Source: Chloroflexota bacterium
GTDB taxonomy: Bacteria; Chloroflexota; Anaerolineae; B4-G1
DNA length: 64,000 nucleotides
Direction of reading: 5' to 3'
NCBI GenBank assembly: GCA_012514315.1
Contig: JAAZAN010000096.1
Span: 1,884 to 65,883, forward strand
Shown: positions 2,205-62,866 of the stretch, one piece after another
Position numbering within the stretch: position 1 is the first letter of the stretch
Layout: every line of letters starts with the position of its first letter
Made by a program: the position numbers and the translations under genes
The notes under the pieces: generated by a model
The model's input: the letters and a program-made list of their open reading frames with translations, nothing else
The model's database searches: none
What the model was told of the DNA's origin: nothing

Positions 2205-3299
2205 CTAGAACGGGTAGAAGTCGCGTGCGGTGTCGAACGCGGCGACGATGTTCTCCGGCGGCGTGCCGGCCTGGATGGCGTGTGACGGCCCCAGTATGTA
2301 GCCGCCGTTCCTGCCCAGTGTGCTGATCAGATGCTGGACCTCGTTGCGGACATCGTCCACCGTGCCGAATGGCAACGTAGTCTGCACGCTGACGCCGCCC
2401 TCAAAGCAGAGTCGCTCGCCGAAGCGATTCTTGAGGTCCGCCGGGTCCATGCCCTCGGCGCTGAACTGCAGCGCCTGCAGGATGTCAATGCCCATGTCGA
2501 TCAGGCCATCGACGAAACTGCTGACCGCGCCGTCAGTGTGGTAGATCACCTTGACCCCGTCGAAGTTGTGGATCGCTGCGTTCATTCGTTCGTGATAGGG
2601 CTTGATGAACGTCTCCCACATCTGGCGCGACATCAGGGGGCCCTGCTGCCCGGCCAGGTCGTCGGCTGTGAAGACCAGGTCGATCTCCCCCTGGCCGGCC
2701 TCAAGGACGCGCGCGAAGAACGGAACGTAGAAGTCGGTGACGCGGCCCATAATGGCGTGCACCAGCTCCGGGTTGAGCGCCATGTCCATGAACATGTTTT
2801 CGAAGCCGCGCATGTACCAGGACGTCTCGAAGATATTGCCGTTAGCGACGATGACGCACCGCTCACCATCGGCCTGGATACTGGCGATGCGCTCCGGTAT
2901 GACAGAATAGTCGAACCATTCGACGCTGGGCCAGCGATGGGCATTGAGACCGTCGACATCCTCCACTCCAGCCAGGGGATAGAACTCGATCTCGTCGTAG
3001 CTACTGTCTGGATCCCCATAGCTGTAGTTCACGGCTTTCCGGCGCACCGACCAGATATCCTCGCCCTCGCTCAGCGATGGCCCGATGTACTGAGGAGCCA
3101 CGCCTCGGATGTCGATGAGCGGATCCAGGTAGGCTTCAACCGAGAGGCCACGCGTGCGTTGGAGGTAGTCGGTCAACGCACGGTATGCGGGCGGATTGAT
3201 GCCGGAGCAGACCATCGCGATGGGGACGCGGTCCGTTTCCTGATGATCCAGCGCCAGGCGCACGCGCTCACGGCTTGACATTGTCTCTCTGCGTGACAT
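2205..3299 (-). CDS. Uroporphyrinogen decarboxylase (URO-D) family protein, MtaA/CmuA-like, substrate unknown
   Basis: 364-aa ORF. N-terminal RERVRLALDHQETDRVPI and C-terminal GGYILGPSHAIQAGTPPENI are typical of URO-D-fold proteins. The start could be 3281 (MSSRER). Confidence 0.75.
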   Translation of the reverse strand: MSRRETMSSRERVRLALDHQETDRVPIAMVCSGINPPAYRALTDYLQRTRGLSVEAYLDPLIDIRGVAPQYIGPSLSEGEDIWSVRRKAVNYSYGDPDSSYDEIEFYPLAGVEDVDGLNAHRWPSVEWFDYSVIPERIASIQADGERCVIVANGNIFETSWYMRGFENMFMDMALNPELVHAIMGRVTDFYVPFFARVLEAGQGEIDLVFTADDLAGQQGPLMSRQMWETFIKPYHERMNAAIHNFDGVKVIYHTDGAVSSFVDGLIDMGIDILQALQFSAEGMDPADLKNRFGERLCFEGGVSVQTTLPFGTVDDVRNEVQHLISTLGRNGGYILGPSHAIQAGTPPENIVAAFDTARDFYPF

Positions 3300-3332
3300 A
3301 TCGTCTCTCCAAGTAGGTGCAGGGCGGGTGGA

Positions 3333-4241
3333 CTATCCCTTGATTCCCGACATCACGACGCCACGGACGAAGTACTGCTGCAGGAAGATGAACAAGAGGA
3401 GCGAGGGCAACGTCATCATCATCGCCGAAGCCATCAGCAGATGCTCGGTGGCTCCACCGCCCGCCTCTGCCGACCGACGGTAGTACTGCAGCCCGAGCTG
3501 CAGTGTGAACTTCTCCAGCGTGTTCAGATAGATGAGGGGATAGAAGAAGTCGTTCCAGCTCCCAAGAAACGAGAAGATGGCCATCGTGATGAAGACGGGT
3601 TTCGACATCGGGACCAGGATACGGAAGAAGATGGACAGTGAAGAGGCTCCATCGATTGTCGCGGCCTCGTCGAACTCCTTGGGGAGCGTCAGAAAGAACT
3701 GGCGGAATAGGAAGATGGCGAACGCGCCGCCGCCAAAGTAGGCTGGCACGATCAGCGGGTTGTAGCTATCGAGCCACCCCAGGAATCTGAACAAGATGAA
3801 CTGGGGGATGATCGTGACTTGACTGGGAAGCATGAGGGTGCTCAACATCACGACAAACAGCGCGTCGCGTCCGGGGAAGCGGAAGCGCGAGAATCCATAG
3901 GCAACGAGCGAGGCAGATAGCATCTGTCCGATCAGCGTCGCGACGGTGACGACGATACTGTTGCGGTAGAAGAGCGCGAAGGGTATCTGGCGCCAGATCT
4001 CAATGTAGTTGTGCCACTGGAAGACCTTCGGAAACAGCGTGGGCGGAAAGATGAATATCTCGCGCGTGGTCTTGAGCGATGTGAACAGGGCCCACATGAA
4101 CGGACCACCGAACAGCACCGCCAGCACCAAGATGAGCAAGTAGGTACCTGATTGAAGCAGATGCCGTCTCCAAGTGCGGCTGCGACGCGTCCTCGTCAGC
4201 CCGTTGGCTGCCTGCTGTACGGCGACTGGCTGTGATCTCAT
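3333..4241 (-). CDS. Carbohydrate ABC transporter permease (MalG-like)
   Basis: Six predicted TM segments and an EAA loop (EAATIDGASSLSIFFRILVPM). The start abuts the stop of the upstream permease. Confidence 0.9.
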   Translation of the reverse strand: MRSQPVAVQQAANGLTRTRRSRTWRRHLLQSGTYLLILVLAVLFGGPFMWALFTSLKTTREIFIFPPTLFPKVFQWHNYIEIWRQIPFALFYRNSIVVTVATLIGQMLSASLVAYGFSRFRFPGRDALFVVMLSTLMLPSQVTIIPQFILFRFLGWLDSYNPLIVPAYFGGGAFAIFLFRQFFLTLPKEFDEAATIDGASSLSIFFRILVPMSKPVFITMAIFSFLGSWNDFFYPLIYLNTLEKFTLQLGLQYYRRSAEAGGGATEHLLMASAMMMTLPSLLLFIFLQQYFVRGVVMSGIKG

Positions 4242-5203
4242 CAGATACCCCCCGACTGTGTCTCATAGTAGACCCAGCTCCGCGCCATTCGAAGCTGCAG
4301 ATAGGTCAGAAGCAGCACCATGAAGAAGAAGACCCACGCCAGCGCCGATCCGTAGCCCATCTCCCAGTACATGAAGGCGTATTTATACAGGTTAAGTACA
4401 TAGAAGAGCGTTGACTGCGACGGGCCGCCAACCGAGTGAGCCCCGCTCGAGGCGACGTAGGCAGAGGAGAAGAGCTGCAGAGCGCCAATGATGCCCATAA
4501 CCAGGCTGAAGAAGATCGTCGGAGTCAGCAGCGGTAGCGTGACGCGCCAGAAGCGACTCCACGAGCCCGCTCCGTCGATCTCGGCCGCTTCGTGAAGCTC
4601 GATGGGGACGCCCTGCAGTCCGGCCAGAAAGATCAGCATCGTTCCTCCGCCAACGCTGCCCCACAGCCCGATGATGATCAACGCGGGCTTCGACCAGGTA
4701 GGGCTCGCGAACCATCCAGGTCCGTCGATGCCGATCAGCGAGAGCAGGTAGTTGATCAACCCGACCTGAGGATTGAATATCCAGATCCACAGCATCATCG
4801 CAGCGACGATCGGGGTGACTGAGGGCAGGAAGAAGATGGTACGGAACAGCGCCCTGCCCCTGATCCGGCCGTTCAGCAGCATTGCGCAGAGTAGCGAGCC
4901 GGTGACCCCTACCGGGACCGCTATCGCCGTATAGTACAGAGTGTTCTCCAAGGATTTCCAGAACGTTGGGTCGGTGGTGATGCGGGCATAGTTGGCCAAC
5001 CCGGTGAATCGAGGCGGCTGGATTAGGGCAAAGGTTGTCAGGCTCAAGTACAGGGACGCGAGGACTGGTCCAAACGTGAAGACCAGGTACCCGATTATCC
5101 AGGGCGAGATGTACGCGTACCCCAGGATCGCCTCATGGCGTTCGAGCGTGAGCCAGGGTCGCTTACGTCCGCTGCTATCTGCTTGCCAGGTCCCCGTTGT
5201 CAT
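4241..5203 (-). CDS. Carbohydrate ABC transporter permease (MalF-like)
   Basis: EAA loop EAAEIDGAGSWSRFWRVTLPLL. I chose the ATG at 5203 (MTTGTWQ) because AAGGAG lies 9 nt upstream. The track ORF extends to 5302. Confidence 0.85.
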   Translation of the reverse strand: MTTGTWQADSSGRKRPWLTLERHEAILGYAYISPWIIGYLVFTFGPVLASLYLSLTTFALIQPPRFTGLANYARITTDPTFWKSLENTLYYTAIAVPVGVTGSLLCAMLLNGRIRGRALFRTIFFLPSVTPIVAAMMLWIWIFNPQVGLINYLLSLIGIDGPGWFASPTWSKPALIIIGLWGSVGGGTMLIFLAGLQGVPIELHEAAEIDGAGSWSRFWRVTLPLLTPTIFFSLVMGIIGALQLFSSAYVASSGAHSVGGPSQSTLFYVLNLYKYAFMYWEMGYGSALAWVFFFMVLLLTYLQLRMARSWVYYETQSGGI

Positions 5204-5342
5204 AGTGATGCACTCCTTGCGTCCGGCCGCTGCCCACATCATGATTGTCAGCGGCCGGACGGATCTACTGAGTGGCATGGAGAGGCCAACCTGGCATCGC
5301 ATTCACTCAGGTTGTCGGCCTCTCCACTGTGCGTCCCTTACG

Positions 5343-6737
5343 TCACGTTAGCAGCGACGGTCTGTCGAGAGTCTCCTGGCCGGCCTGGACGACGTCGGGC
5401 ATGACCTCGTCGAACGTCCTCTCGCCTGTCCAGATTGGCTCGAGGCCCTCGTTGACCACCTGCCAGTACTCCTTCTCGCGGAAGTTCGCCGGGCAGGGCA
5501 GCCGGGGTGGCATACCCTCCGCCTGCAGCATCTCCGTGTTGACCTTGAAGTGCGGATCTGCCAGGGCTTCCTCGCTCTCCCAGATATCCGGTCGGCAGCC
5601 AGGGACGCTCCGATAGTCACGCCAGAGCTCCATGCCTGCCTCGTAGCCGCACACATAGGTGAGGTACTCGAAGGTCTCCGCCGGGTACTTGGAGGCGGCG
5701 GTGACGCCGACATTGTCGACGAACATGACGAGCCCGCGTCCGGCTGGGCCGAGCGGGGTGCCGACGACGCCCCAGGAGTCAGGTGCGACGTAGTCGTCCA
5801 CGACCTTCCCCCAGAATCCGCTCTGGAACATGGCCAGTTTGCCGGCAGCGAACATCTGGTATTCACTGCCCGCGAGTTCGGCGGTTGTAGGCGTAACCCC
5901 GTGCACGTGGAAGAGGTCGCTGAATACCCGCATGCCCTCGACCGTTCCCGGCGCATCGATATTCGTCTTCGTGCCGTCGGCGCTGAGCAGGTCTCCACCG
6001 TAAGCCCGTGCAGCCGCCGGCGGGCTGCCGCCATAGTAATTGCTCGTTACCAGGCCGAAGATTCCTTCGTCTGGTTTGCTGAACACCTTGGCCGTCTCAA
6101 TCATCTCGTCCCAGGTCCAATCCAACGCTGGGTACTCGACGCCGGCCTCATCGAACATCGTCTTGTTGTAGTAGATATCGCTGCCCGACCCGATGTTGAG
6201 GAGGTACGGCAGGGCATATAGGTTCCCCTCGTACCGGAGCGCCTCGATCGATTCTGGGTAGAATTGGTTCAGGTCGTAGTCTTTGGATGCGACAATGTCG
6301 TCGAGGGCCGCGTAAATGCCCGTCGCCGCATACTGGTCGAAACCGTTGCCCAACCAGATCCAGAAGGCGTCGCCTATCGTGCCGCCTGCCAGCATCGTAT
6401 CGAGCTTCTGGTAGTAGTCCGCGTCCGAGAACAACTCTGTCTTGACGAAGACATTGGGATGGTGCTCCTCGTTGTACAGGTGGGCGTACTTGTTGAAGTG
6501 ATCCCCCTGGTCTCCCAGTCTGGCTTCGATGCGGAGCGTAATCGGCTCAGCTTGCTCGACGATGGTTGTTACCTGGGGCTCTGACGGAACCTCCACTTCG
6601 CGCGTGACCTCGACTGGGACCTCGACGGTCTCTCGCTCGGTGATCACCTGCGGAGCGCAGGCGGCCAGTGCTGCGCCCGCTGCACTCAATGCGCCCAACC
6701 GCAGGAACTGACGCCGACTGATTGACTTGCTATCCAC
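5343..6737 (-). CDS. Extracellular solute-binding protein (CUT1 sugar ABC), Tat/lipoprotein-type signal
   Basis: Twin-arginine signal SRRQFLRLGALSAAGAALAAC, followed by a family-1 SBP-like body. A GTG at 6737 is preceded by AAGGAGG at 6-nt spacing. Alternative starts are 6761 and 6821. Confidence 0.85.
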   Translation of the reverse strand: MDSKSISRRQFLRLGALSAAGAALAACAPQVITERETVEVPVEVTREVEVPSEPQVTTIVEQAEPITLRIEARLGDQGDHFNKYAHLYNEEHHPNVFVKTELFSDADYYQKLDTMLAGGTIGDAFWIWLGNGFDQYAATGIYAALDDIVASKDYDLNQFYPESIEALRYEGNLYALPYLLNIGSGSDIYYNKTMFDEAGVEYPALDWTWDEMIETAKVFSKPDEGIFGLVTSNYYGGSPPAAARAYGGDLLSADGTKTNIDAPGTVEGMRVFSDLFHVHGVTPTTAELAGSEYQMFAAGKLAMFQSGFWGKVVDDYVAPDSWGVVGTPLGPAGRGLVMFVDNVGVTAASKYPAETFEYLTYVCGYEAGMELWRDYRSVPGCRPDIWESEEALADPHFKVNTEMLQAEGMPPRLPCPANFREKEYWQVVNEGLEPIWTGERTFDEVMPDVVQAGQETLDRPSLLT

Positions 6738-6998
6738 TTGGGTCCTCCTTTGACTTGTCATGGGCCTATGGTAGAATCGTAGCCCGTGGGGCAACCCCAC
6801 ACTGGTAAGGCGGCAGGTCACCTTCCCTGAGCCGGTGGGTGACCTGCACGCTATCCGGATTCATTCCGGAAGGTGCAGCGGTCCCGACTTGTCGATGCGA
6901 CATCACCTCCTCCCAGAGTCTCACTCCATATTCGCACCCCGCGCCAACAGACACAGTCTTTGTCCGCGCCGCGGATGGCCCTTGCGCTGGTCTGTAGC

Positions 6999-12563: not shown

Positions 12564-13361
12564 TTACGCCGCGAACGTCAGGCACCGCAACACCTCGAAG
12601 TAGTCATCGTGCTCGAATGCCACCGTATGGGCGTCGATGCGTTCTGCTCCCGGATAGAAGCTGCCGGCATAGGCGCTGCTGTGTGTCCGGTAACATATCT
12701 CCATTCGGAAGTGGTCCGGCAATGTGATTAGAGCGCGTGACAGATCGCCCTGCAGCGCGCGCTCCACGGCCTCGCTGATACGGGCGGTCGCCAGCGCCGG
12801 GTGGATGTTGACCGTCGATGCGCCGATGCCTTCCTTCACCGCGACACTCGCGATATGCGGGTTGAGCTCTGACGCGAGTTCGCATAGTGCGCGATCGCCC
12901 GACACAAACACCACGGGCACGCCGACGTAGGCGGCCACGAAGGCGTGCAGCAGGAACTCGGATGCGTACTGGCCGTTGAGCTTGATGTGCACGAAGTCGA
13001 GGCTCATGGTATGCGCGAGGGGGTTGCCGCCCCCGCCCGCGGGTGAATGATAGCCCACCATCAGCATGGCCTGGAAGCTCCGATCGAGTTCCTCAACCAT
13101 GCCGAATGGGTGACCGCTCCAACCGCGCACGAGCTTCACCTGCTGCGGTAGTCTGTCACCGGCGACGTTCCGGCCCTCGCCGTGTGCGTCCTTGACCCAG
13201 ACCTCGCTGGCGCCCGCGTTGAGCGCGCCTTCACATGCGGCGGCCACCTCCGCCGTCATCTGGTCGCGATGTGGGGCGGCGGATTCCTTCTGGAGGTGCG
13301 TCTCGTCCCAGTGTGTGACCCCGGTGACGCCCTCGATATCGGCGCTGATGAAGACCTTCAT
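12564..13361 (-). CDS. M55 family D-aminopeptidase (DppA-like)
   Basis: N-terminus MKVFISADIEGVTGV and overall 265-aa length are typical of peptidase M55. Confidence 0.75.
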   Translation of the reverse strand: MKVFISADIEGVTGVTHWDETHLQKESAAPHRDQMTAEVAAACEGALNAGASEVWVKDAHGEGRNVAGDRLPQQVKLVRGWSGHPFGMVEELDRSFQAMLMVGYHSPAGGGGNPLAHTMSLDFVHIKLNGQYASEFLLHAFVAAYVGVPVVFVSGDRALCELASELNPHIASVAVKEGIGASTVNIHPALATARISEAVERALQGDLSRALITLPDHFRMEICYRTHSSAYAGSFYPGAERIDAHTVAFEHDDYFEVLRCLTFAA

Positions 13362-14590: not shown

Positions 14591-15763
14591 GTGCGCATGG
14601 GCTTCAAGCACTGCTTTCCGTTTCTTGGTCTGGTCACTGGGGCTCTGCTCATCGGCTGTCAGGCCGAGGGGTACCTGGACCCAGCAGCGACGCCACACGT
14701 GGAACGTGCCACAGCAAGCCTGAGCGCTACCGCACCGATGCCCACACAGACCCTTGTGTGCACCCCGGGACCCACGTTGACGCCATCGCGAACACCCACG
14801 AGGACGCCCACACTGACGCCTACACCGAGCCCAACTCCGGCGCACCCGCTCGCGATTGAGAGCCTGCGTGCGGTCCCGTACGCTGGAAGCGACTTGGTGG
14901 TGGAGCAGGCTCTGGGGCCTGGATCCAACTACGACCGCTTCATCGCGTCGTATGACTCCGATGGACTCAAGATCTACGGCCTGCTGACGGTTCCCCACGG
15001 TGAACGTCCCGAGTCAGGCTGGCCGGCCGTGATCTTCAACCATGGGTACATCCCCCCAGATCAGTACCGGACGACGGAGCGATACATCGCCTACACCGAT
15101 GCTTTCTCTCGTAACGGGTACGTGCTGTTCCGGCCCGACTATCGGGGACACGGTAACTCCGAAGGTGACGCTGGCGGCGCCTATACCTCGGCCGACTACA
15201 CGATCGACGTGTTGAACGCTCTGGCGAGCGTGCGTCGTTACCCTGCTGTCGATCCCAATCGGATCGGGATGTGGGGCCACTCGATGGGCGGCCAGATCAC
15301 ATTACAGGTGATGGTTGTGTCACGTGATGTACGGGCTGGCGTGATCTGGGCCGGTCTCATGGGGTCGTACGAGGACCTGCAGCGTTGGTGGTGGTGGCCG
15401 CGCTGGGGATGGTCGGATGGCACGCCAGTCGCCGGCGGTGCGTCCCAGGATCGTGCGAGCGCCTGGTTGGCGGAGATGGAGACATTGTACGGCGCCGTGG
15501 ACGACGACGCCCCATTCTGGGCTGCCCTGTCTCCGACATCGTACCTGGTCGATCTCTCGGGCCCTCTTCAGCTCCATCACGGGACTGGCGACACGACGGT
15601 CTCGACGGTCTTCTCGGAGAAGCTGTACCGCCTTGTTCAGGAAGCTGGCCACCCCGTCGAGCTCTATCTGTACGATGGAGACGATCACAATATCTCGAAC
15701 AGTTTCGGGGTGGCCATGGTCCGCTCCGTCGAGTTCTTCGATCTACACGTCAAGGCACGGTAG
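14591..15763 (+). CDS. Alpha/beta hydrolase, S9 prolyl-oligopeptidase/dienelactone-hydrolase-like lipoprotein
   Basis: Lipobox LLIGC, Pro/Thr linker TPTRTPTLTPTPSPTP, nucleophile elbow GMWGHSMGG, C-terminal HHGTGD and DDH. The start is GTG 14591 or ATG 14597. Confidence 0.75.
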   Translation: MRMGFKHCFPFLGLVTGALLIGCQAEGYLDPAATPHVERATASLSATAPMPTQTLVCTPGPTLTPSRTPTRTPTLTPTPSPTPAHPLAIESLRAVPYAGSDLVVEQALGPGSNYDRFIASYDSDGLKIYGLLTVPHGERPESGWPAVIFNHGYIPPDQYRTTERYIAYTDAFSRNGYVLFRPDYRGHGNSEGDAGGAYTSADYTIDVLNALASVRRYPAVDPNRIGMWGHSMGGQITLQVMVVSRDVRAGVIWAGLMGSYEDLQRWWWWPRWGWSDGTPVAGGASQDRASAWLAEMETLYGAVDDDAPFWAALSPTSYLVDLSGPLQLHHGTGDTTVSTVFSEKLYRLVQEAGHPVELYLYDGDDHNISNSFGVAMVRSVEFFDLHVKAR

Positions 15764-20945: not shown

Positions 20946-22046
20946 CTAGACTGCGCCCACGATGTCCTTGAGGCGTGAGGCATAATAGTAGTAGTTCGTC
21001 CAGCTCACGTCGTCCGGAATCAGGTGATCAAGGTCGGGAATGTAGCGCCCTTGCGCGATGGCCGGGCGGATTCTCTCCAGCTCCCGATCGATGTCGGCAC
21101 GGCCCCTGGCGAGGACGCGCTTGTCTATACCGCCCATGAGGGCGAGCGTGGGGCGCTGTGCTCGCCACACGTTGACATCACAGTCCGCAGCTACCTCCAT
21201 CGGAAACAGCAGGTTCACTCCACAATCGACCATGTGGGACGCGATCATGCTCGGGTTGCCATCGGTATCGACTGAGACAACGGGTATCCCGTGCTCGTCC
21301 GCAAATCGGCGAATGCGCCGATAGTGAGGCCCCATAAACTCCATCCAGTGTCTCGGTGAGATCAGCGGTCCGCTTCGAAAGCACATATCCTCCCACAGGT
21401 GAATGACGTCAACCCGTATCTCGCGAACGACTTGCTCGAAAACGGTAAGGTACAACGTCGTCATGTGGTTCATGATATCGTGCACAAGGTCCGGCGCGGT
21501 GTGGAACGCGACGAGTCCCTCTTCGTCGCCAAGAAGCCAGCGCACCGGTCCGAATATCCCAGCGTCAGGGAAGTCGCCGAGCTGAATGGGATAACCGCGA
21601 TTCATCCACTCCGCTCCCAGCTTGCGCCAGTCGCCCGCAAGTCGCGCTGGGTCATTGGGATTGAGGCGTTCGCGCTTGAACTCCTCCCAGGTCGGCCAGT
21701 CGAGCACCGGGAACTCCAGGAATTCGGACATCGACTCCCTGTGCCGGAAATCGCGGCGCTTGATGCCCCAGCTGTCGAGATGGATGACAAACTCTGGCGT
21801 CTCTTCGAATACTACCGGGTCAAATCGTGGGCAAGGCCCGGTGTTCACTGGCAGTGCCAGAGGGGGCTGGTCAGGACCGAAAAGTGATCGGTGATCTGTG
21901 ACCGCACTCGGCTTTCCTTCTCGGGTCCACCGTTCCCAGGTAGTCGCCCAAGGACCCCAGAAGAGCCAATACGGTGGTCGATCCACCGGCTCCCCGAGGA
22001 CACAGGCGACAAATCGCTCGCGGTCAGTCATTGGCGACCCTGTCAT
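20946..22046 (-). CDS. URO-D family protein (second paralog), substrate unknown
   Basis: TDRERFVACVLGEPVDRPPYW N-terminus, a TIM-barrel-length ORF, and GRYIPDLDHLIPDDV near the C-terminus. Confidence 0.7.
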   Translation of the reverse strand: MTGSPMTDRERFVACVLGEPVDRPPYWLFWGPWATTWERWTREGKPSAVTDHRSLFGPDQPPLALPVNTGPCPRFDPVVFEETPEFVIHLDSWGIKRRDFRHRESMSEFLEFPVLDWPTWEEFKRERLNPNDPARLAGDWRKLGAEWMNRGYPIQLGDFPDAGIFGPVRWLLGDEEGLVAFHTAPDLVHDIMNHMTTLYLTVFEQVVREIRVDVIHLWEDMCFRSGPLISPRHWMEFMGPHYRRIRRFADEHGIPVVSVDTDGNPSMIASHMVDCGVNLLFPMEVAADCDVNVWRAQRPTLALMGGIDKRVLARGRADIDRELERIRPAIAQGRYIPDLDHLIPDDVSWTNYYYYASRLKDIVGAV

Positions 22047-23742: not shown

Positions 23743-27219
<3,477 letters not shown>

Positions 27220-27269
27220 GACCGAATTGGGTCCCGTGAGCCTGCTGACAAGAGGAGTGGGGGCGCCCT

Positions 27270-29639
27270 ATGCCGATAAGTGAGCGAGTGACGCGGCTGC
27301 GCGCTGAGAGCCTGGCCGCCGTGCCCTCGATATCGACCGAACGAGCTGAGCTTGTCACGGCGTTCTACCGCGAGCATCAGCACGCGCTCCTGGCGCCTCC
27401 ACTGCTGCGCGCGCAGGCCTTCGCGTACCTGATGGAGCACAGGACGCTCTACCTGAGCCCAGATGAGCTGATCGTGGGCGAGAAAGGACCTGCTCCCAAG
27501 GCAACGCCAACTTACCCCGAGCTATGCTGCCACAGTCTCGCTGATCTCGATATCCTGAACTCGCGTCAGAAGATCCCGTTTCGTGTCTCATCAGAGGCTC
27601 GCCGGACGTACGATGAGATCGTGATTCCGTTCTGGCGCGGGCGTTCCATGCGCGATTTGATCTTCTCCGAGATGACGCCCGAGTGGATTGCTGCGTATGA
27701 GGCCGGCGTCTTCACGGAATTCATGGAGCAGCGCGCCCCGGGCCATACCGTTCTAGACGACAAAATCTACAGACGCGGCTTTCTCGACTTCAGGGTTCAG
27801 ATAGAGCACGCGCTGGCCCGGATCGACCCCCTGTCAGATCCGGAAGCATACGCCAGGCAGAATGAACTGCGGGCCATGCTCATCTGCATCGATGCCCTGC
27901 TGCGTATGGCGCAGCGTTACGCCGAGCGTGCGCGGGAGCTGGCTGTGCTGGAGATGGACCCAACCCGTCGCTCTGAGCTACTCCGGATCGCCAGCGTGTG
28001 TATGCACGTTCCGGCCCACGCTCCGCGTGACTTCTGGGAAGCGCTGCAGAGCTACTGGTTCGTGCACCTGGGTGTCACGACCGAATTGAATACATGGGAT
28101 TCGTTCTCACCGGGCAGGCTTGATCAGCATCTTCTGCCGTTCTATCAGCAGGGACTGGCGGACGGGACGTTGACACGAAATGCGGCAGAGGAGCTGCTGC
28201 AATGTCTTTGGATCAAGTTCAATAACCAACCGGCCCCGCCCAAGGTTGGCGTAACAGCCGAAGAGAGCGGCACCTACACGGACTTCGCCCAGATCAACCT
28301 GGGCGGCTTGCGTCCTGACGGATCTGACGGCGTCAACGAGGTCACGTACCTACTGCTGGATGTGGTTGAGGAGATGCGACTGATCCAGCCCAGCGCATCG
28401 ATTCAGGTGAGTAGGCTCAGTCCAGACCCGTTCATCAAGCGGGCCGGCCGCGTGATCCGCACGGGCTTTGGCCAGCCGTCGATCTTCAATGCGGACCTGA
28501 TCGTGCAGGAGCTCCTGCGACAGGGCAAATCGTTGATGGATGCGCGCAGTGGCGGCTCCAGTGGCTGCGTTGAGGTAGGAGCTTTCGGCAAAGAGAACTA
28601 CAATCTGACGGGCTACTTCAACCTGCCCAAAGTACTTGAACTCACACTGCACGACGGCGTGGATCCACGATCGGGTGAGAGGGTGGGGCTCGCGACGGGA
28701 GCGCCGACTTCATTTGAGACGTTCGAAGACTTGCTGAAGGCGTACTCTGCTCAGGTGAACCACCTGGTCGACGTGAAGGTGCGGGGCAACAACGCGATCG
28801 AACGGATGTATGCCAGCATGATGCCATGCCCGTTCCTGTCGCTGTTGATCGATGACTGCATTCCACAGGGTAAGGACTATCACGACGGCGGCGCGCGGTA
28901 CAACACGAGCTACATTCAAGGAGTTGGTCTGGGTTCGATCACCGATGAGCTGACCTCTATCCGGCGCCACGTGTTCGATGAGCGTTCACTCAGCATGGCA
29001 GAGCTGATGACTGTTCTGGAAGCTGACTTCGATGGTTTTGAGCGGTTGCACGGCATGCTGATGAACCGGACGCCGAAGTACGGCAATGATGACGACTACG
29101 CGGACAGTGTGATGCAGGCCATCTTCGAGATCTACTACCAGGCCGTGGAGGACCGCCCCAACACTCGGGGCGGACACTATCACATCAACATGCTGCCGAC
29201 GACGGTCCACGTATACTTTGGAGCGGTCACTGGAGCGATGCCAGATGGGCGCAGGTCCGGCGAGCCGCTTTCGGAGGGCATATCGCCGGTTCAGGGCGCC
29301 GATCGCCATGGCCCAACCGCCGTGTTGCGCTCGGCAGCCAAGCTCGACCACGTGCGCACAGGCGGCACCTTACTCAACCAGAAGCTGACGCCCTCGCTGC
29401 TGGCCAAGGACGAGGACCTGGACAATGTCGGATACCTGGTGAGGTCATACTTCGCGATGAACGGACACCACATTCAGTTCAATGTGGTTGACGCGTCCAT
29501 ACTGCGAGCTGCGCAGCGCGATCCTGATCGATTCAGAGACCTCATTGTGCGGGTGGCTGGATACAGCGACTACTTCTGTGACCTGAGCGAGTCTCTCCAG
29601 AACGAGATCATATCCCGCACCGAGCACAGTGTCCTGTAG
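27270..29639 (+). CDS. Glycyl radical enzyme, PFL2/dehydratase clade (trans-4-hydroxy-L-proline dehydratase-like candidate)
   Basis: 789 aa. Glycyl radical motif RVAGYSDYF (Gly764, nt 29559-29561). Thiyl loop GCVE (Cys433 nt 28566-28568, Glu435). Starts 50 nt after the GH127 stop. Confidence 0.85.
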   Translation: MPISERVTRLRAESLAAVPSISTERAELVTAFYREHQHALLAPPLLRAQAFAYLMEHRTLYLSPDELIVGEKGPAPKATPTYPELCCHSLADLDILNSRQKIPFRVSSEARRTYDEIVIPFWRGRSMRDLIFSEMTPEWIAAYEAGVFTEFMEQRAPGHTVLDDKIYRRGFLDFRVQIEHALARIDPLSDPEAYARQNELRAMLICIDALLRMAQRYAERARELAVLEMDPTRRSELLRIASVCMHVPAHAPRDFWEALQSYWFVHLGVTTELNTWDSFSPGRLDQHLLPFYQQGLADGTLTRNAAEELLQCLWIKFNNQPAPPKVGVTAEESGTYTDFAQINLGGLRPDGSDGVNEVTYLLLDVVEEMRLIQPSASIQVSRLSPDPFIKRAGRVIRTGFGQPSIFNADLIVQELLRQGKSLMDARSGGSSGCVEVGAFGKENYNLTGYFNLPKVLELTLHDGVDPRSGERVGLATGAPTSFETFEDLLKAYSAQVNHLVDVKVRGNNAIERMYASMMPCPFLSLLIDDCIPQGKDYHDGGARYNTSYIQGVGLGSITDELTSIRRHVFDERSLSMAELMTVLEADFDGFERLHGMLMNRTPKYGNDDDYADSVMQAIFEIYYQAVEDRPNTRGGHYHINMLPTTVHVYFGAVTGAMPDGRRSGEPLSEGISPVQGADRHGPTAVLRSAAKLDHVRTGGTLLNQKLTPSLLAKDEDLDNVGYLVRSYFAMNGHHIQFNVVDASILRAAQRDPDRFRDLIVRVAGYSDYFCDLSESLQNEIISRTEHSVL

Positions 29640-29858: not shown

Positions 29859-30515
29859 GTGCTGCGCGAGGGGTTATCCGTGCTGAAGATGCCTGTCGAG
29901 ACACTGCCGGAGGGATGGGTTGTAGCCGCCGTTGTCGCAGCTCTGGCAATCGTGACTATGCTGATGTGGGCACAGGCTTTCCTGTTGCATCGGCGCTACA
30001 CAGGGCCCTACACGTTGCTTGAAGCCTCGGCGCAGGATAAATGGCGCCGGGCTGTGGCAATCGCGTTCTGGGAGACGGCGCCTGTTCTGGCGGCCGGTAT
30101 GCTCGTCGCCATACTGGACGTAAGGACCAATCACCTGATGCTCTATCCGCTGCTTGGTCTGGGGTCCTGGCTGGTTCTCTTCTCGCTGACCTTGCAGGTG
30201 AGCCGCCAGCGCATGGATTTCCGACTCAAACGATACATTGCGCTAGACCGGGCGATCCAGTCCGATGGCTCCGGAGAGCGCGTCCGACGGTTGGTGCGCC
30301 GTCTCCCGCGATGGCTTGACACGGTCGAGATCCAGGAGTTCGCTGAACGAGGCTACAGCGTACGCATGCCAGCGACTGACCCGGCGCCTACACAGGAAGG
30401 CCACGCTGCCGCAGTGATGGCGGACGAAGCAGCTCCACCGCCCCTCGAAGGCCAGACAGCCCCCCCGCCGTCGGAGGACGCCTCCTCTGCGCCGCGCCCG
30501 CCCATTCCGCTCTAG
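29859..30515 (+). CDS. Hypothetical membrane protein with Pro-rich C-terminus
   Basis: GTG start after AAGGAGAGGG. Three or four hydrophobic helices. Tail APPPLEGQTAPPPSEDASSAPRPPIPL. Confidence 0.5.
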   Translation: MLREGLSVLKMPVETLPEGWVVAAVVAALAIVTMLMWAQAFLLHRRYTGPYTLLEASAQDKWRRAVAIAFWETAPVLAAGMLVAILDVRTNHLMLYPLLGLGSWLVLFSLTLQVSRQRMDFRLKRYIALDRAIQSDGSGERVRRLVRRLPRWLDTVEIQEFAERGYSVRMPATDPAPTQEGHAAAVMADEAAPPPLEGQTAPPPSEDASSAPRPPIPL

Positions 30516-45554: not shown

Positions 45555-47390
45555 CTAAAGGTACCCCAGGCTCCTCAGCCTGTCCTCCAGGGCGTCTTCG
45601 TCTTCCTCACTCCCCTGCACCGGTGGCTGTACACGACGGCCAGGCGGCAACTCTGCACCGATTGCTAGCACGGGGAAGTCCCGATAGGAGGGGTGGGGGA
45701 AGCCACCTAGATCCCGGTTGGCGAAGAGCACCCCGGGCACATGCTCCGAGTCAATGCAATGGTCCGCTCCCCAGTGGTCTGTATTGGCCTCAATCTCGGC
45801 ATCCGGCCATCGCCCCAAACCGGTCTCCGCCGAAGCCCGGTAGCCGGGCGAGAATCCCACGACCAGATCTGGGCCGTAGACCGCCAACGGGCCCTCAAAG
45901 GCCTGGTCTCGCGTCAGCACCCTCTCCACCACCCGGCGGCCATCGGGCCCACGCCAGCGCAGCAGGTCGGTTTGAACGGACTCCATTACCTGTGAGCTCT
46001 CTGCGGCGTCTACGCTGCCCTGTCCCTCGCGCTCGATCAGGTTCAAGTAAATGCTATTGAGGCCGACCGCATAGGCCTGGCTGCGGCGCCAGTCCACATC
46101 GCGTAGCCCTCCCTGGCGTGGGCTTCCGGCCGGCGCTAGATAGCTGTGCGCGATCAGCCAGCGATTCACGTGCGCCTTGTAGTCAAATCTTGAGAAGCCG
46201 TGATCAGATACGACCAGGAAACGCGTGTCTTCGCGTGCATCCAGTTGCTGGCCTAACCTGCCCACCAGGCCATCCAGCCGGCAATACCACTCATCCACGA
46301 TATCCGGTCGGTCTCGCCAGAACATATGCTGCACCCGATCGAGCGAATCAAAGACGCAGGCGAGAAGCCCTTCCTGAAACTGGCTGATCTGGTGAGTCAG
46401 CACACGTTCCCGTTCTGCATCGATCAGTTCGCAAAGGGTAAGGAATTGATCGTCCGTGAGACAACCGTCCTCAAGACCGGTAGTGTCCTGCGGCATTCCC
46501 AGTGTCAGGAAGGGGCCACACGAACCCCAGAGCGCTCGCACCTGTCCACGCGGAGTCGCGTAGCGCCACGGCGTACTCAGGGGATGGATCTGTGTCGGCA
46601 GGGCGTAGAGTCGAACCCCCTGCTCCACCTGACTTAGCAGGAACCGGGTGAGAGCGCGGAATCTGAACGGCCACCCCATGCTGAACTCCAGTTCCACAAT
46701 CGGGCTCCACCGGCCCACCGTCAGCTCGACCTGCCTCTTGCCCAGATTCAGACGAGCCATCTCTCCGTCGAACACTTCTAGCTCCAGACGGATCTCAGAC
46801 GACTTCGTCCCTTTGCGCGTCTGCCGGCTCGGGCCTTCCAGAGCGCCGGCGTATCGCCGCGATGAGAGCGCAGAGAGCGGCTTAACCGGCGTCTTCATGC
46901 CGGTCTGGTCGACGGCCTCAGGGTCGGACGTGTAAAGGGTACCCACGCCAAGGCGGCCATGGATGTCGGGGGCGCCGAGTCCGGGCAGCGTGGCTACTGG
47001 CAGCTCAGGGCGCGCCGGGAAGGTTGCCGGCCACCACAACGCAGTGGCGGGAAACCCCTGGCGAGCAGCCTCCTCGAAGATCGTGCACGCGCGATGGGGC
47101 GGCACGAACTGCGTTCCAGCCACACCGCGGCGGGTTGGCAACAGAGAGACGTATGGCGTATAGGTGGAGGGATCACGATGCACGAAGTCGAAGATACCGT
47201 GGCGGCCCGGATTGAGTCCAGTCGCGATGCTGGTCCAGGAAACCTCAGTCTGCGGCGGGTCGGACACTTTGAACCGGGCGTAGCCGCCCGAGGCGGCGAG
47301 CGTTGCCAGATGGGGCAACCGTCCTTGGCCAGCCAGCTCCTCGAACTTCACTGGGTCAAACGCGTCAAAGCCGAGTATCAGAGTCCGCAT
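45555..47390 (-). CDS. Alkaline-phosphatase superfamily protein, nucleotide pyrophosphatase/phosphodiesterase (NPP)-like
   Basis: LILGFDAFDP and PPQTEVSWTSIATGLNPGRHG fit the NPP pattern P..T.....S..TG..P..HG. Later LVVSDHG. Confidence 0.7.
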   Translation of the reverse strand: MRTLILGFDAFDPVKFEELAGQGRLPHLATLAASGGYARFKVSDPPQTEVSWTSIATGLNPGRHGIFDFVHRDPSTYTPYVSLLPTRRGVAGTQFVPPHRACTIFEEAARQGFPATALWWPATFPARPELPVATLPGLGAPDIHGRLGVGTLYTSDPEAVDQTGMKTPVKPLSALSSRRYAGALEGPSRQTRKGTKSSEIRLELEVFDGEMARLNLGKRQVELTVGRWSPIVELEFSMGWPFRFRALTRFLLSQVEQGVRLYALPTQIHPLSTPWRYATPRGQVRALWGSCGPFLTLGMPQDTTGLEDGCLTDDQFLTLCELIDAERERVLTHQISQFQEGLLACVFDSLDRVQHMFWRDRPDIVDEWYCRLDGLVGRLGQQLDAREDTRFLVVSDHGFSRFDYKAHVNRWLIAHSYLAPAGSPRQGGLRDVDWRRSQAYAVGLNSIYLNLIEREGQGSVDAAESSQVMESVQTDLLRWRGPDGRRVVERVLTRDQAFEGPLAVYGPDLVVGFSPGYRASAETGLGRWPDAEIEANTDHWGADHCIDSEHVPGVLFANRDLGGFPHPSYRDFPVLAIGAELPPGRRVQPPVQGSEEDEDALEDRLRSLGYL

Positions 47391-47432
47391 CGTTTCTCCA
47401 TTCGGACGGGCAGATCCGGCCGAACCGACGTG

Positions 47433-47726
47433 TTACTGCCCGTCTGACACACCAATCTCGTCGTCCGTAGTCCCAGGATCGACCTGAGGCGACGACGCAG
47501 CGTCCTGATGGCGAAGCCCCCTTAACTTGCGCGCGATTCGGGCAACTGCCGTGCGAATCTGACGTGAGAAGATGAGGGCGAAGCCCGAGATAACGCCGAA
47601 GGCAGTTGCCAGAATCTGAAATAGCAGGCCGCCTGTATTGGGGTCGATGTAGGCCAGCGCGGGTCGCGCCGCGACCAGTGCGAACAGCAGCCCCAGGACA
47701 AGCGACTTGACGACGGTCTTGGTCAC
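47433..47726 (-). CDS. Small membrane protein (signal/TM, YIDPNTGG motif, second TM, basic tail)
   Basis: GTG start with GGAGGAGG 6 nt upstream; 97 aa. Confidence 0.55.
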   Translation of the reverse strand: MTKTVVKSLVLGLLFALVAARPALAYIDPNTGGLLFQILATAFGVISGFALIFSRQIRTAVARIARKLRGLRHQDAASSPQVDPGTTDDEIGVSDGQ

Positions 47727-47763
47727 GCTCTACCTCCTCCGAGCTCAAGGGCTCGCTGCAGTC

Positions 47764-49302
47764 TCATTGTTCGGACAGCGCCACAGTCGCCTGATTCACC
47801 CGGTACTCCAGCTCAGACCGGAGCGTCTCGGCCACCGGGTCGGAGGGCGAATACTGGTTGTGTCGCTCGCCCGGATCATCCGTCAGATCATAGAGCTCCC
47901 AGGAATCTGGACACTCCGGGTATCCTAGGTAATGAATCAACTTGCGTGATCCATTGATCAGCGCGATGCTGGCCTTGGTGAGGGGCGCCATCTTGGGATT
48001 GCTCTTGGCCTCCACGACGAAGAGACTCCTGTCACCCGCGTTGGTCTCGGGACCGAACGAGGGCAATACCCGGCCCTCACACCAGTCGGGGGCCTCCTGA
48101 CCGCTTGCCTGCAACAGAGTCGGGAGCAGGTCAACCGAGCTGGTTGGGGTGTGGATGTCCCTGCGTCGTCGTTGCCCGGGTCGCGATATGATGAGCGGCA
48201 CCCGGATCAGCGAATCGTACAACGCCGGGGTCATATGTCCGGCGATGCCACGCTCGAACAGCTCGCCGTGATCCGATGTCACGATGAGCATTGTGTTATC
48301 CAGCGCCCCGGTACGCGACATCGTATCGATCAAACGTCCGAACTCCGCGTCCACGTACGCCACATACTCATCGTACTCCACGCGCTTTCGGTTGAGCGTC
48401 TCTTGCGTGTGGCCGCCTGAGAAGGCTCCCGGCGGCAGGGGCTCCGGCGCCCACCCATCGTCGAACAGACCGACAAACTCCCGGCGCGCTGTGTAGGGCT
48501 CGTGCGGTGGCAGCAAATGGTAATAGGCCAGGTATGGCTGTGGGGACTGGGCCGTGCTCTCCAGGATATAGTCGATGGCCTCCTCCAGAATGAAGTAGAG
48601 GTTGTGCATCGTCGGTAGGCCTCGTGGGAAGCTCGCCCTGTGCTCAGCCTCCAGCACCGCCTGACGTCGCGGCCGCCGCACCCTGTCCAGGAGTGATATG
48701 AACAGCGAGACTGGCGGCGAGTAACCCTTGCGCATAAGGATCCACTCGCTCCAGAAGGCCACATTGTAGTCGTGCGGGAACAGGCGATCAGCCAGCTCGT
48801 CATCGCTCAGGCATAGCTCGCGCGCAGGAATCAGTAGGTCAAGATGGCGCCGGGCCTGATACATCAGCGATGTGACGAAGAGATTGTGCGAGAAGCCCAC
48901 ACGGTGATAGCCAGCAGGGCCAAAGGCGCTGAACAGGTTGCGATCCTCGTATGGATGTGCGACGGTTCCGTGCAGGTTGAGGGCTCGGTGAGTCCAGGGG
49001 TAGACGCCGGTGAAGAGCGATGCTACCCCGGGCGTTGTATAGCTGCCCGCGCTGTAGTGGGCGTGAAACACCGTTGCCTGTTCCGCAAAGCGGTCCAGGT
49101 TGGGCGTAGTGCGACGGGGATATCCGTGCAGTGACAGATGCTTGGCTGAGAGAGCGTCGAACACGAGTATGAGGATGTTGGGCGCTGAGATCGACGTACC
49201 ACGCCTGAGCGGGTCGTTGCTCAGTGACTCTCCAGCCATCGGGAGGAACGGAAGCCCCGCCAGGAGCCGCGTGAACTCGCGCCGACTGATACGGTATCCC
49301 AT
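47764..49302 (-). CDS. Sulfatase-like hydrolase/transferase with Thr in place of the formylglycine Cys, Tat-type signal
   Basis: SRREFTRLLAG signal. ILILVFDALSAKH. YTTPGVASLFTG versus the canonical C-x-P-x-R. TSDHGE. Confidence 0.7.
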   Translation of the reverse strand: MGYRISRREFTRLLAGLPFLPMAGESLSNDPLRRGTSISAPNILILVFDALSAKHLSLHGYPRRTTPNLDRFAEQATVFHAHYSAGSYTTPGVASLFTGVYPWTHRALNLHGTVAHPYEDRNLFSAFGPAGYHRVGFSHNLFVTSLMYQARRHLDLLIPARELCLSDDELADRLFPHDYNVAFWSEWILMRKGYSPPVSLFISLLDRVRRPRRQAVLEAEHRASFPRGLPTMHNLYFILEEAIDYILESTAQSPQPYLAYYHLLPPHEPYTARREFVGLFDDGWAPEPLPPGAFSGGHTQETLNRKRVEYDEYVAYVDAEFGRLIDTMSRTGALDNTMLIVTSDHGELFERGIAGHMTPALYDSLIRVPLIISRPGQRRRRDIHTPTSSVDLLPTLLQASGQEAPDWCEGRVLPSFGPETNAGDRSLFVVEAKSNPKMAPLTKASIALINGSRKLIHYLGYPECPDSWELYDLTDDPGERHNQYSPSDPVAETLRSELEYRVNQATVALSEQ

Positions 49303-61368: not shown

Positions 61369-61399
61369 CAGGTCACATTACGTGCGTGGAGGAACGGAG

Positions 61400-62866
61400 T
61401 TGAACAGAGAGACTTGTCTGGTTGCACGTCGCAGGCCGCTCACCGCCAACATCGGTGTCTTCGGAGTTGGGTTCGATGTCTACTGGTCCCAGTTTCCCGG
61501 GCTGAGGGATGAACTCATGGGGTACCTCAACCAGTTCGAGCGACAGGTACGGGAACACGGCGTCTGCACAATCAACTTCGGGATGGTCGACAACGCTGAG
61601 GCCGCGTATGCCACGCTGAAGCGGCTGAGAGCTTCAGATCTCGACCTGGTGTTCTGCGATATGCTCACGTACGCGACCTCGTCCACGTTCGCCGCCATAG
61701 TGCGCGAGCTCGATGTGCCGCTAGTGCTCGTTGCGCTTCAACCTCGGAGGCGTCTGGACTATGCCCAAGCCACGACGTATATGCAGCTGTGCAATGACAA
61801 CATCTGTTCCCTGCCCGAGTTTACTGGAGTAGCGGCTCGACTGGGCAAACGAGTCCCTGATGTGATCATTGGCACGCTGGACGGCGACGCGAACGCCAGT
61901 AGGGAGGTTCATCGCTGGTGCAGTATCGCGCGAGTCCTGCACGATCTGAAGACCGCGCGGATCGGGCACTTCGGCCATCCGATTGAGGCGATGCTCGACA
62001 TGCATACCGACCCGACAGCCCTGACAGCCGCGTTCGGCTTGCACGTCGTTCAGGCCGAGATCGATCTCCTGGTCAGCCTGGCGCGCGACGTCGATGAGAC
62101 TGCCATCTGTGAGAAGCAGGCCAAGATTCTGCAGTTCTTTGACACGCCGGACCCCGGAGCGGATCCGCTGACACGGAAGATCACTCGAGAAGACCTACGC
62201 GAGGCCGCACGGGTCGCTGTTGCATTGGATAGATTCCTGGAGGAACTACGGCTGGATGGCCTTGCGTATTACTACAAGGGTGAACCCGGGAGCGACACAG
62301 AGCGGGTTGCCGCGAGCCTGATCGTTGGCAACTCCCTGTTGTGCGCCGCCGGTGTACCCGTCTGCGGAGAGTCCGACCTGAAGACGTGTGTCGGCATGCT
62401 CATCATGGATCGCCTGGAGATCGGTGGAAGTTTTGCCGAGTTTCACCCCATCGACTTCGTTGATGATTTCGTACTCGTTGGACACGATGGCCCGCACCAC
62501 ATCAATATCGCGGAAGGACGGCCGGTTCTCAGGAGCCTAAGCAAGTATCACGGCAAACCGGGGTCCGGAGCCTCCGTGGAGTTCAAGATCCGTGAGGGTC
62601 CGATCACACTGCTCGGCGTCACATCCACGGCCGCTGGTCGCCCCAAGTTTGTGATCGCCGAGGGCGAATCTGTACGAGGGCCAATCCCTGCCACGGGGAA
62701 CACCAACACGCGAGGACACTTCGGCCCGGACGCGGTGACATTTCTCAAGAGGTGGGTTGCTGAGGGACCGACGCATCACTTCTCGCTGGGCACCGGCCAC
62801 CACGCCGAGACCCTGCGGCTCATTGCGGACCTGCTCGGGATCGAAAGCGCAACCGTCTCAGCCTGA
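61400..62866 (+). CDS. L-arabinose/L-fucose isomerase family protein
   Basis: TTG at 61400 lies 7 nt after GGAGG (alternative GTG at 61382). IGVFGVGFDVYW...DLVFCDMLTYA...GHFGHPIEAMLD is typical of AraA-like isomerases. Confidence 0.75.
   Translation: MNRETCLVARRRPLTANIGVFGVGFDVYWSQFPGLRDELMGYLNQFERQVREHGVCTINFGMVDNAEAAYATLKRLRASDLDLVFCDMLTYATSSTFAAIVRELDVPLVLVALQPRRRLDYAQATTYMQLCNDNICSLPEFTGVAARLGKRVPDVIIGTLDGDANASREVHRWCSIARVLHDLKTARIGHFGHPIEAMLDMHTDPTALTAAFGLHVVQAEIDLLVSLARDVDETAICEKQAKILQFFDTPDPGADPLTRKITREDLREAARVAVALDRFLEELRLDGLAYYYKGEPGSDTERVAASLIVGNSLLCAAGVPVCGESDLKTCVGMLIMDRLEIGGSFAEFHPIDFVDDFVLVGHDGPHHINIAEGRPVLRSLSKYHGKPGSGASVEFKIREGPITLLGVTSTAAGRPKFVIAEGESVRGPIPATGNTNTRGHFGPDAVTFLKRWVAEGPTHHFSLGTGHHAETLRLIADLLGIESATVSA

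Follow-up and report, generated by a model that had tools for sequence, protein, structure and literature searches.

A 64,000-nucleotide stretch of a high-GC genome (Chloroflexota bacterium; GTDB lineage Bacteria; Chloroflexota; Anaerolineae; B4-G1; GenBank assembly GCA_012514315.1, contig JAAZAN010000096.1, positions 1,884 to 65,883 of the forward strand), hereafter called the window, encodes a 789-aa protein which is very probably HypD, the glycyl radical enzyme (GRE) that turns Hyp (trans-4-hydroxy-L-proline) into Δ1-pyrroline-5-carboxylate (P5C); its activating enzyme (activase) would be encoded outside the window, and its gene would be co-transcribed with that of an upstream glycosidase of family GH127. 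A preliminary description of this DNA, made from the letters alone, had noted the open reading frame (ORF), its RVAGYS and GCVE motifs and its likeness to a set of C. difficile HypD residues, and the analysis reported here bears out that identity. The gene and its two diagnostic motifs are as follows.

27270..29639, + strand: hypD, 789 aa, recognized by NCBIfam model NF043068, PDB entry 6vxc, Pfam and 13 conserved HypD residues.
28566..28574, + strand: thiyl loop codons Cys433-Val434-Glu435 (GCVE, residues 432-435), corresponding to HypD C434/V435/E436 (PMC7077986).
29550..29567, + strand: codons of the glycyl radical motif RVAGYS, in which Gly764 corresponds to HypD G765.

The ORF is real: it starts with an ATG preceded by an AGGAG-type ribosome-binding site (RBS; GAGGAG), and its product shows a full-length match to the PFL-like family (E 1e-221) as well as to Gly_radical (PF01228, E 7e-32) in Pfam, so that an ORF of 789 codons arising by chance can be dismissed. 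The NCBIfam equivalog for HypD (NF043068, glycl_HYPD) scores the protein at 1264.6 bits, well over its cutoff of 1100, and the protein falls far under the cutoff of each of the other glycyl-radical equivalogs, including those for sulfopropanediol dehydratase, CutC, PFL, and the indoleacetate and hydroxyphenylacetate decarboxylases. Among solved structures, the top relative is the HypD of Clostridioides difficile (PDB 6vxc, 1052 bits), followed by glycerol dehydratase (559 bits), propanediol dehydratase (498 bits) and CutC (~476 bits).

The substrate-binding and catalytic residues of C. difficile HypD have been reported as F152, R156, H160, W277, D278, K326, S334, D339, F340, C434, E436, Y450 and T645 (PMC7077986; Backman et al. 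2020, the eLife structure paper). After the 6vxc sequence had been reconstructed from its printed alignment, we made a MAFFT alignment of it, the window protein and over 80 homologues. The two proteins are collinear apart from a single one-residue indel, share identical glycyl radical motifs and GCVE loops, and are 55.3% identical over 781 aligned residues. All 13 of the published residues are identical in the window protein, each at position n-1, and across 94 homologues they vary little or not at all. F151, H159, D277, S333, F339, C433, E435, Y449, T644 and G764, as well as G282 and T447, all stand at the positions where they had been counted by hand. Because the published residues align with identical window residues one position lower, the C. 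difficile numbers given in the preliminary description are right; they agree with those of Backman et al. 2020 (PMC7077986), and the offset, window residue n against HypD residue n+1, holds in a real alignment, in which the residues listed for the window protein do align with the substrate-binding residues of HypD. Furthermore, the protein falls within the large HypD clade of a neighbour-joining (NJ) tree, which was built without bootstrap. By every sequence criterion, then, it is a clear-cut HypD-type GRE.

A HypD-like enzyme with another substrate, be it an isomer of Hyp, an N-methylated form or some small diol, as in glycerol or propanediol dehydratase, has to be considered, since the CXE loop and the overall fold are common to the GRE eliminases, and since GREs acting on Hyp isomers have recently been described under the names HplG (PDB 7vua), HpyG (8id1) and HpzG (8iof) (PMC13450708). 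These three score 409, 440 and 447 bits against the window protein, respectively, far from the 1052 bits of HypD, and were rejected as its closest type. The B12-independent glycerol dehydratase of Clostridium butyricum (PDB 1R8W) has in common with the window protein the PFL2-type eliminase fold, C433, E435 and a histidine (H164 in the dehydratase, H159 here), but its H281, F333, M338, Y339 and D447 are aligned with D277, S333, D338, F339 and L446, so that the residues H281, F333, Y339 and D447, specific to glycerol dehydratase, are all replaced. The preliminary description had drawn this contrast from Gly282 and Thr447, which do exist in the window protein, but it compared them with Ser282 and Asp447 of glycerol dehydratase by equal number rather than by aligned position; in the alignment Ser282 of the dehydratase corresponds to S278 of the window protein, a conserved serine, and only Asp447, aligned with L446, is a true difference. 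As every Hyp-contacting residue is identical to that of C. difficile HypD and the scores lie far under the cutoffs of all other equivalogs, we regard a different substrate as extremely unlikely.

For the reading of the protein as a Hyp dehydratase, the mechanism established for the C. difficile enzyme can be taken over. A radical-SAM activase encoded outside the window would install the radical on Gly764, from which it would pass to Cys433; the resulting thiyl radical would abstract a hydrogen from C5 of Hyp, and the loss of water, assisted by Asp277, His159, Glu435 and Asp338, would then yield P5C. By this analogy we infer, with high confidence, that the activated enzyme dehydrates trans-4-L-Hyp to P5C.

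Two negative results in the window weigh against this explanation. Firstly, a tblastn search of the 64 kb with the HypD activating enzyme of Paramaledivibacter (L065, 9062-9982, with the motif CPLECWWC at residue 35) detected no activase, the best match having E = 2.4. Likewise, the motif CxxxCxxC is absent from all window ORFs of at least 100 aa; the few matches in a six-frame scan of the window all lie in short out-of-frame segments. Secondly, neither proC nor a P5C dehydrogenase gene was found among the ~47 window ORFs scanned, which are all but ~5 smaller ones. The gene thus differs from its clostridial counterpart, as it has no adjoining activase or proC (hypD-proC co-localization is reported to be common in Clostridiales; PMC6219649), its upstream neighbour is a GH127 glycosidase gene, and its host is a high-GC Anaerolineae bacterium and not a Clostridium. 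In 62 of 82 related loci the activase lies directly upstream of hypD, and an ORF clustering within 5 kb of hypD in ~85 loci returned the activase, together with its shadow ORF, as the only widely conserved neighbour.

The absence of an activase from the 64 kb and the occupation of its usual slot by GH127 might be taken to mean that hypD is a decaying or silent relic, whose adjoining activase was lost and whose product the organism is now unable to activate. However, the ORF is full length with all catalytic residues and the glycyl radical motif intact, and a good RBS precedes it. Moreover, an intact hypD without a linked activase is present in 14 or more further loci with sufficient flanks, mostly of Chloroflexota (L001, L002, L005, L008, L012, L018, L022, L037, L040, L041, plus L084-L086 and L174/L175). 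These loci are scattered over the unbootstrapped NJ tree and do not form a single clade, which indicates that an unlinked activase is a common and viable state; the nearest homologue with genomic context (L170, 74.5% identity) does have an activase. Unlinking of the activase is therefore a recurrent state in Chloroflexota and by itself no sign of decay, and we consider a relic very improbable. The frequency of this unlinking raises the question which activase serves such HypDs.

The gene for the GH127 protein, which resembles β-L-arabinofuranosidases, occupies the slot directly upstream of hypD where the activase is usual. The elements of this presumed transcription unit are as follows.

25266..25295, + strand: candidate promoter, TTGTCG-18 nt-TATAAT with an upstream TG, a consensus match only, ~44 bp before the GH127 start.
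25339..27219, + strand: GH127 β-L-arabinofuranosidase-like gene, 626 aa from ATG, with three GH127 Pfam domains.
27220..27269, + strand: GH127-hypD spacer of 50 bp, carrying the hypD RBS GAGGAG.

As the two genes are on the same strand with a gap of only 50 bp, in which no terminator-like hairpin was found, and as a promoter-like site was found only upstream of GH127, hypD is most likely co-transcribed with GH127. The mechanical ORF of the latter begins with a GTG at 25258, and the likely start is the ATG at 25339 behind an AGGAGG. The product matches the catalytic (PF07944, 350.6 bits), middle (PF20736, 76 bits) and C-terminal (PF20737, 86 bits) domains of the family, and no signal peptide was detected from the ATG at 25339; judged by its sequence, the protein is intact and cytoplasmic. 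Its best matches in the PDB are the Geobacillus β-L-arabinofuranosidase (4qjy, 503 bits) and HypBA1 of Bifidobacterium longum (3wkw, 378 bits). Assignment to the aceric acid hydrolases, a GH127 subgroup, was rejected (NF049879, 494 bits against a cutoff of 950). HypBA1 residues E322, E338, C340, C417 and C418 are aligned with E300, E316, C318, C384 and C385 of the window protein, respectively; of these, E338, C340, C417 and C418 are what we take to be the individual zinc ligands of HypBA1. The nucleophile of HypBA1 is Cys417 and its acid/base is Glu322, and the enzyme possesses a (Cys)3-Glu zinc site (PMC8106489). Thus, the window protein keeps the three domains, the cysteine nucleophile, the glutamate acid/base and the zinc site of HypBA1 and of XeHypBA1 from Xanthomonas, and its lack of a signal peptide agrees with the reported intracellular location of HypBA1. 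It differs from them in being nearer to the Geobacillus enzyme than to HypBA1, in having none of the GH121, GH43 and ABC-transporter partners of the B. longum cluster and Xanthomonas genes beside it, and in forming an apparent two-gene unit with HypD instead.

Characterized GH127 enzymes free L-arabinose from hydroxyproline-linked β-L-arabinofuranose (Araf-β-Hyp), which XeHypBA1 prefers, and Ara2-Hyp and Ara3-Hyp are further substrates of HypBA1 (PMC6085000). It is plausible by analogy that the window protein hydrolyses Araf-β-Hyp; since such cleavage also yields free Hyp, the substrate of HypD, a coupled route from Hyp-arabinosides to P5C is plausible too. In such a two-gene catabolic module, hydroxyproline-O-arabinosides of plants or algae, from extensins and other hydroxyproline-rich glycoproteins (HRGPs), would be fed into anaerobic metabolism: peptidases such as an M55 aminopeptidase might first trim the glycopeptides, the cytoplasmic GH127 would strip the last β-L-arabinofuranose from imported Ara(n)-Hyp, and the Hyp set free in this way would be the substrate that HypD dehydrates to P5C. 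We give this module somewhat less than an even chance.

The chief competitor of the module is coincidence, whereby the GH127 protein would serve the general use of β-L-arabino-oligosaccharides and HypD would independently use free Hyp derived from peptides of collagen, HRGP or microbial origin. Such a reading contests only the coupled pathway and not the identity of HypD. Besides the window, GH127 lies within 10 kb of hypD in only one of the 82 HypD loci (L039), and there it is ~10 kb off and not adjacent; the activase is the sole widely conserved neighbour; and HypD neighbourhoods in Chloroflexota vary widely. Seen from the other side, most relatives of the window GH127 have genes for sugar ABC transporters and LacI regulators as neighbours rather than Hyp genes; short-chain dehydrogenase/reductase (SDR) and luciferase-like genes also occur beside them. 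On balance, we lean narrowly towards coincidence.

Against it stands the recurrence of the pair. Among the 80 metagenomic GH127 loci most similar to that of the window, seven (L091, L093, L094, L095, L097, L098 and L100; GH127 64-66% and HypD 67% identical to those of the window) have hypD immediately upstream of GH127 on the same strand. The order of genes in all seven is HypD, GH127 and peptidase M55 on one strand, opposite to the GH127-HypD order of the window. Two examples of the cluster are given below.

L091, 3451-9022: HypD-GH127-M55 cluster.
L094, 3356-8731: HypD-GH127-M55 cluster.

Four of the seven also have a flavodoxin gene close by, just downstream and on the other strand, and no activase occurs within the flanks examined of any of them. 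As their M55 proteins are 88-92% identical, the seven loci represent one genus-level lineage and were counted as one event. The HypD of this second lineage keeps all active-site residues and bears an insertion of 24 aa behind window residue 572; in the unbootstrapped NJ tree it belongs to a different subclade from the window HypD, and the two are not sisters. Immediate same-strand adjacency in two non-sister HypD lineages with opposite gene order argues for selection on the adjacency, although two events are a thin basis. A second occurrence by chance in the searched set would be expected ~0.03 times, a figure that is a back-of-envelope inference and not a computed statistic, and the release of arabinose from Araf-β-Hyp by characterized GH127 enzymes, leaving the substrate of HypD (PMC6085000), likewise speaks for a functional link. 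Outside the HypD-GH127-M55 lineage we found no Hyp-pathway genes around the GH127 relatives, and our literature search returned no paper combining arabinofuranosidase, HypD and hydroxyproline.

An M55 gene is also present in the window, some 14 kb from the pair.

12564..13361, - strand: peptidase M55 (DppA-type aminopeptidase), 60% identical to the M55 of the second lineage.

This protein is a possible pathway partner of GH127-hypD. Beside it are located an ORF of 317 aa without an assigned family and a divergent peptidase gene of the S9/S33-type alpha/beta-hydrolases (14591-15763, +), and the genes between 12564 and 15763, ~12-14 kb from hypD, could possibly represent peptide-trimming machinery. 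The occurrence of the GH127-HypD unit in two lineages and in opposite orders suggests arabinosylated glycoproteins of plant cell walls as the material from which Hyp is harvested, a connection of glycan with amino-acid catabolism that can be tested directly. If the module is real, it would tie HRGP deglycosylation to the glycyl-radical Hyp pathway for the first time at the genomic level, and would indicate that environmental Chloroflexota obtain their Hyp from plant cell-wall glycoproteins and not from collagen.

As to the host, the preliminary description was correct in supposing a high-GC, non-clostridial genome. The window has a GC content of 61.7%, and its composition stays uniform through the locus; between 20 and 34 kb neither GC nor skew stands out, and we found no signature of horizontal transfer there. 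The prolyl-tRNA synthetase (ProRS) encoded beside the locus is 75-79% identical to named Anaerolineae proteins. The nearest HypD homologues (72-75% identity) come from metagenome-assembled genomes (MAGs) of Anaerolineae, Thermoflexales and other Chloroflexota, and several of them are named HypD by NCBI; an exact-protein look-up returned no record identical to the window protein. The HypDs of these MAGs are similarly 786-790 aa long, and several likewise lack an adjacent activase. GH127, in contrast, adjoins hypD in none of those inspected except the L091 group, the neighbours there being instead peptidases (M24, M20, C45-like), SDR genes, DAO or ornithine cyclodeaminase genes, or the activase.

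The further suggestion that this protein would extend the known distribution of HypD was overstated, since HypD had been described from over 850 genomes, which span 11 phyla and include archaea (PMC6219649; Huang et al. 2018), and since homologues in Chloroflexota, Gemmatimonadota, Aminicenantes and archaea number in the hundreds. At least 600 matches were obtained in species-representative genomes, and the best 80 of them include Chloroflexota, Gemmatimonadota, Aminicenantes, Acidobacteriota, Calditrichota, Ignavibacteria, Bathyarchaeia and Asgard archaea; we found no paper devoted to HypD in Chloroflexota specifically. Even so, a non-clostridial HypD is not a new type of observation, and the protein is a further member of a well-known family. 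As HypD alone the gene adds little, the family being characterized both structurally and biochemically, present in many phyla and automatically annotated in Chloroflexota MAGs.

Some of the relatives depart from the canonical enzyme or its surroundings. A small clade has GCVT in place of GCVE (L076, 3286-5637; L078, 1114-3465; L080, 3798-6146; from a Hermod/Asgard archaeon, an unclassified bacterium and a Phycisphaerales MAG). Here threonine takes the place of the essential Glu436 and the remaining 12 HypD residues are unchanged; an adjacent activase is missing from two of the three loci, and the chemistry or the substrate may be altered. In addition, a gene of the ornithine cyclodeaminase/mu-crystallin family stands beside hypD in four loci (L001, 7790-9962; L064; L070; L082), accompanied in L001 by a DAO-type FAD oxidoreductase gene and by no activase; its product may be an alternative pyrroline-carboxylate reductase that replaces ProC. 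Finally, the homologue from an Ignavibacterium album MAG (L019, 1624-3987) has its radical glycine replaced by aspartate (G764D) and carries R155C as well, so that it is either inactive or the result of a sequencing or assembly error.

Among the remaining genes of the window, the one on the other side of GH127 is that of the ProRS.

23743..25173, - strand: prolyl-tRNA synthetase, 476 aa from the ATG at 25173, identical to database entry P0121.

The mechanical ORF of 779 aa (23743-26082, -) overextends this gene and overlaps GH127 on the other strand, a typical shadow-ORF artefact of high-GC DNA. This divergent ProRS came into view as a functional partner because HypD feeds proline, but it was rejected as such: its closest relatives (L167 and L168) have neither GH127 nor HypD nearby, which indicates that its adjacency is coincidental. 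On the other side, 220 bp after hypD, lies a gene for a predicted membrane protein of 218 aa with a Pro/Ala-rich C-terminal tail (29859-30515, +), which has no match in Pfam or NCBIfam and no homologue in any related locus examined. No structured RNA or riboswitch was matched by Rfam in the window. Two genes resembling URO-D (uroporphyrinogen decarboxylase/MtaA-type) are present at 2205-6821 and 20946-22046, one of them adjoining a sugar-type ABC transporter (SBP_bac_1 and two permeases). A protein of 494 aa encoded at 61382-62866 (+) shows weak matches to L-arabinose/L-fucose isomerase C-terminal domains (27-28 bits) and could be linked to arabinose use, though it is 32 kb from GH127. Adjoining genes of the sulfatase and type I phosphodiesterase families at 45555-49302 (-) suggest a polysaccharide- or ester-scavenging lifestyle.

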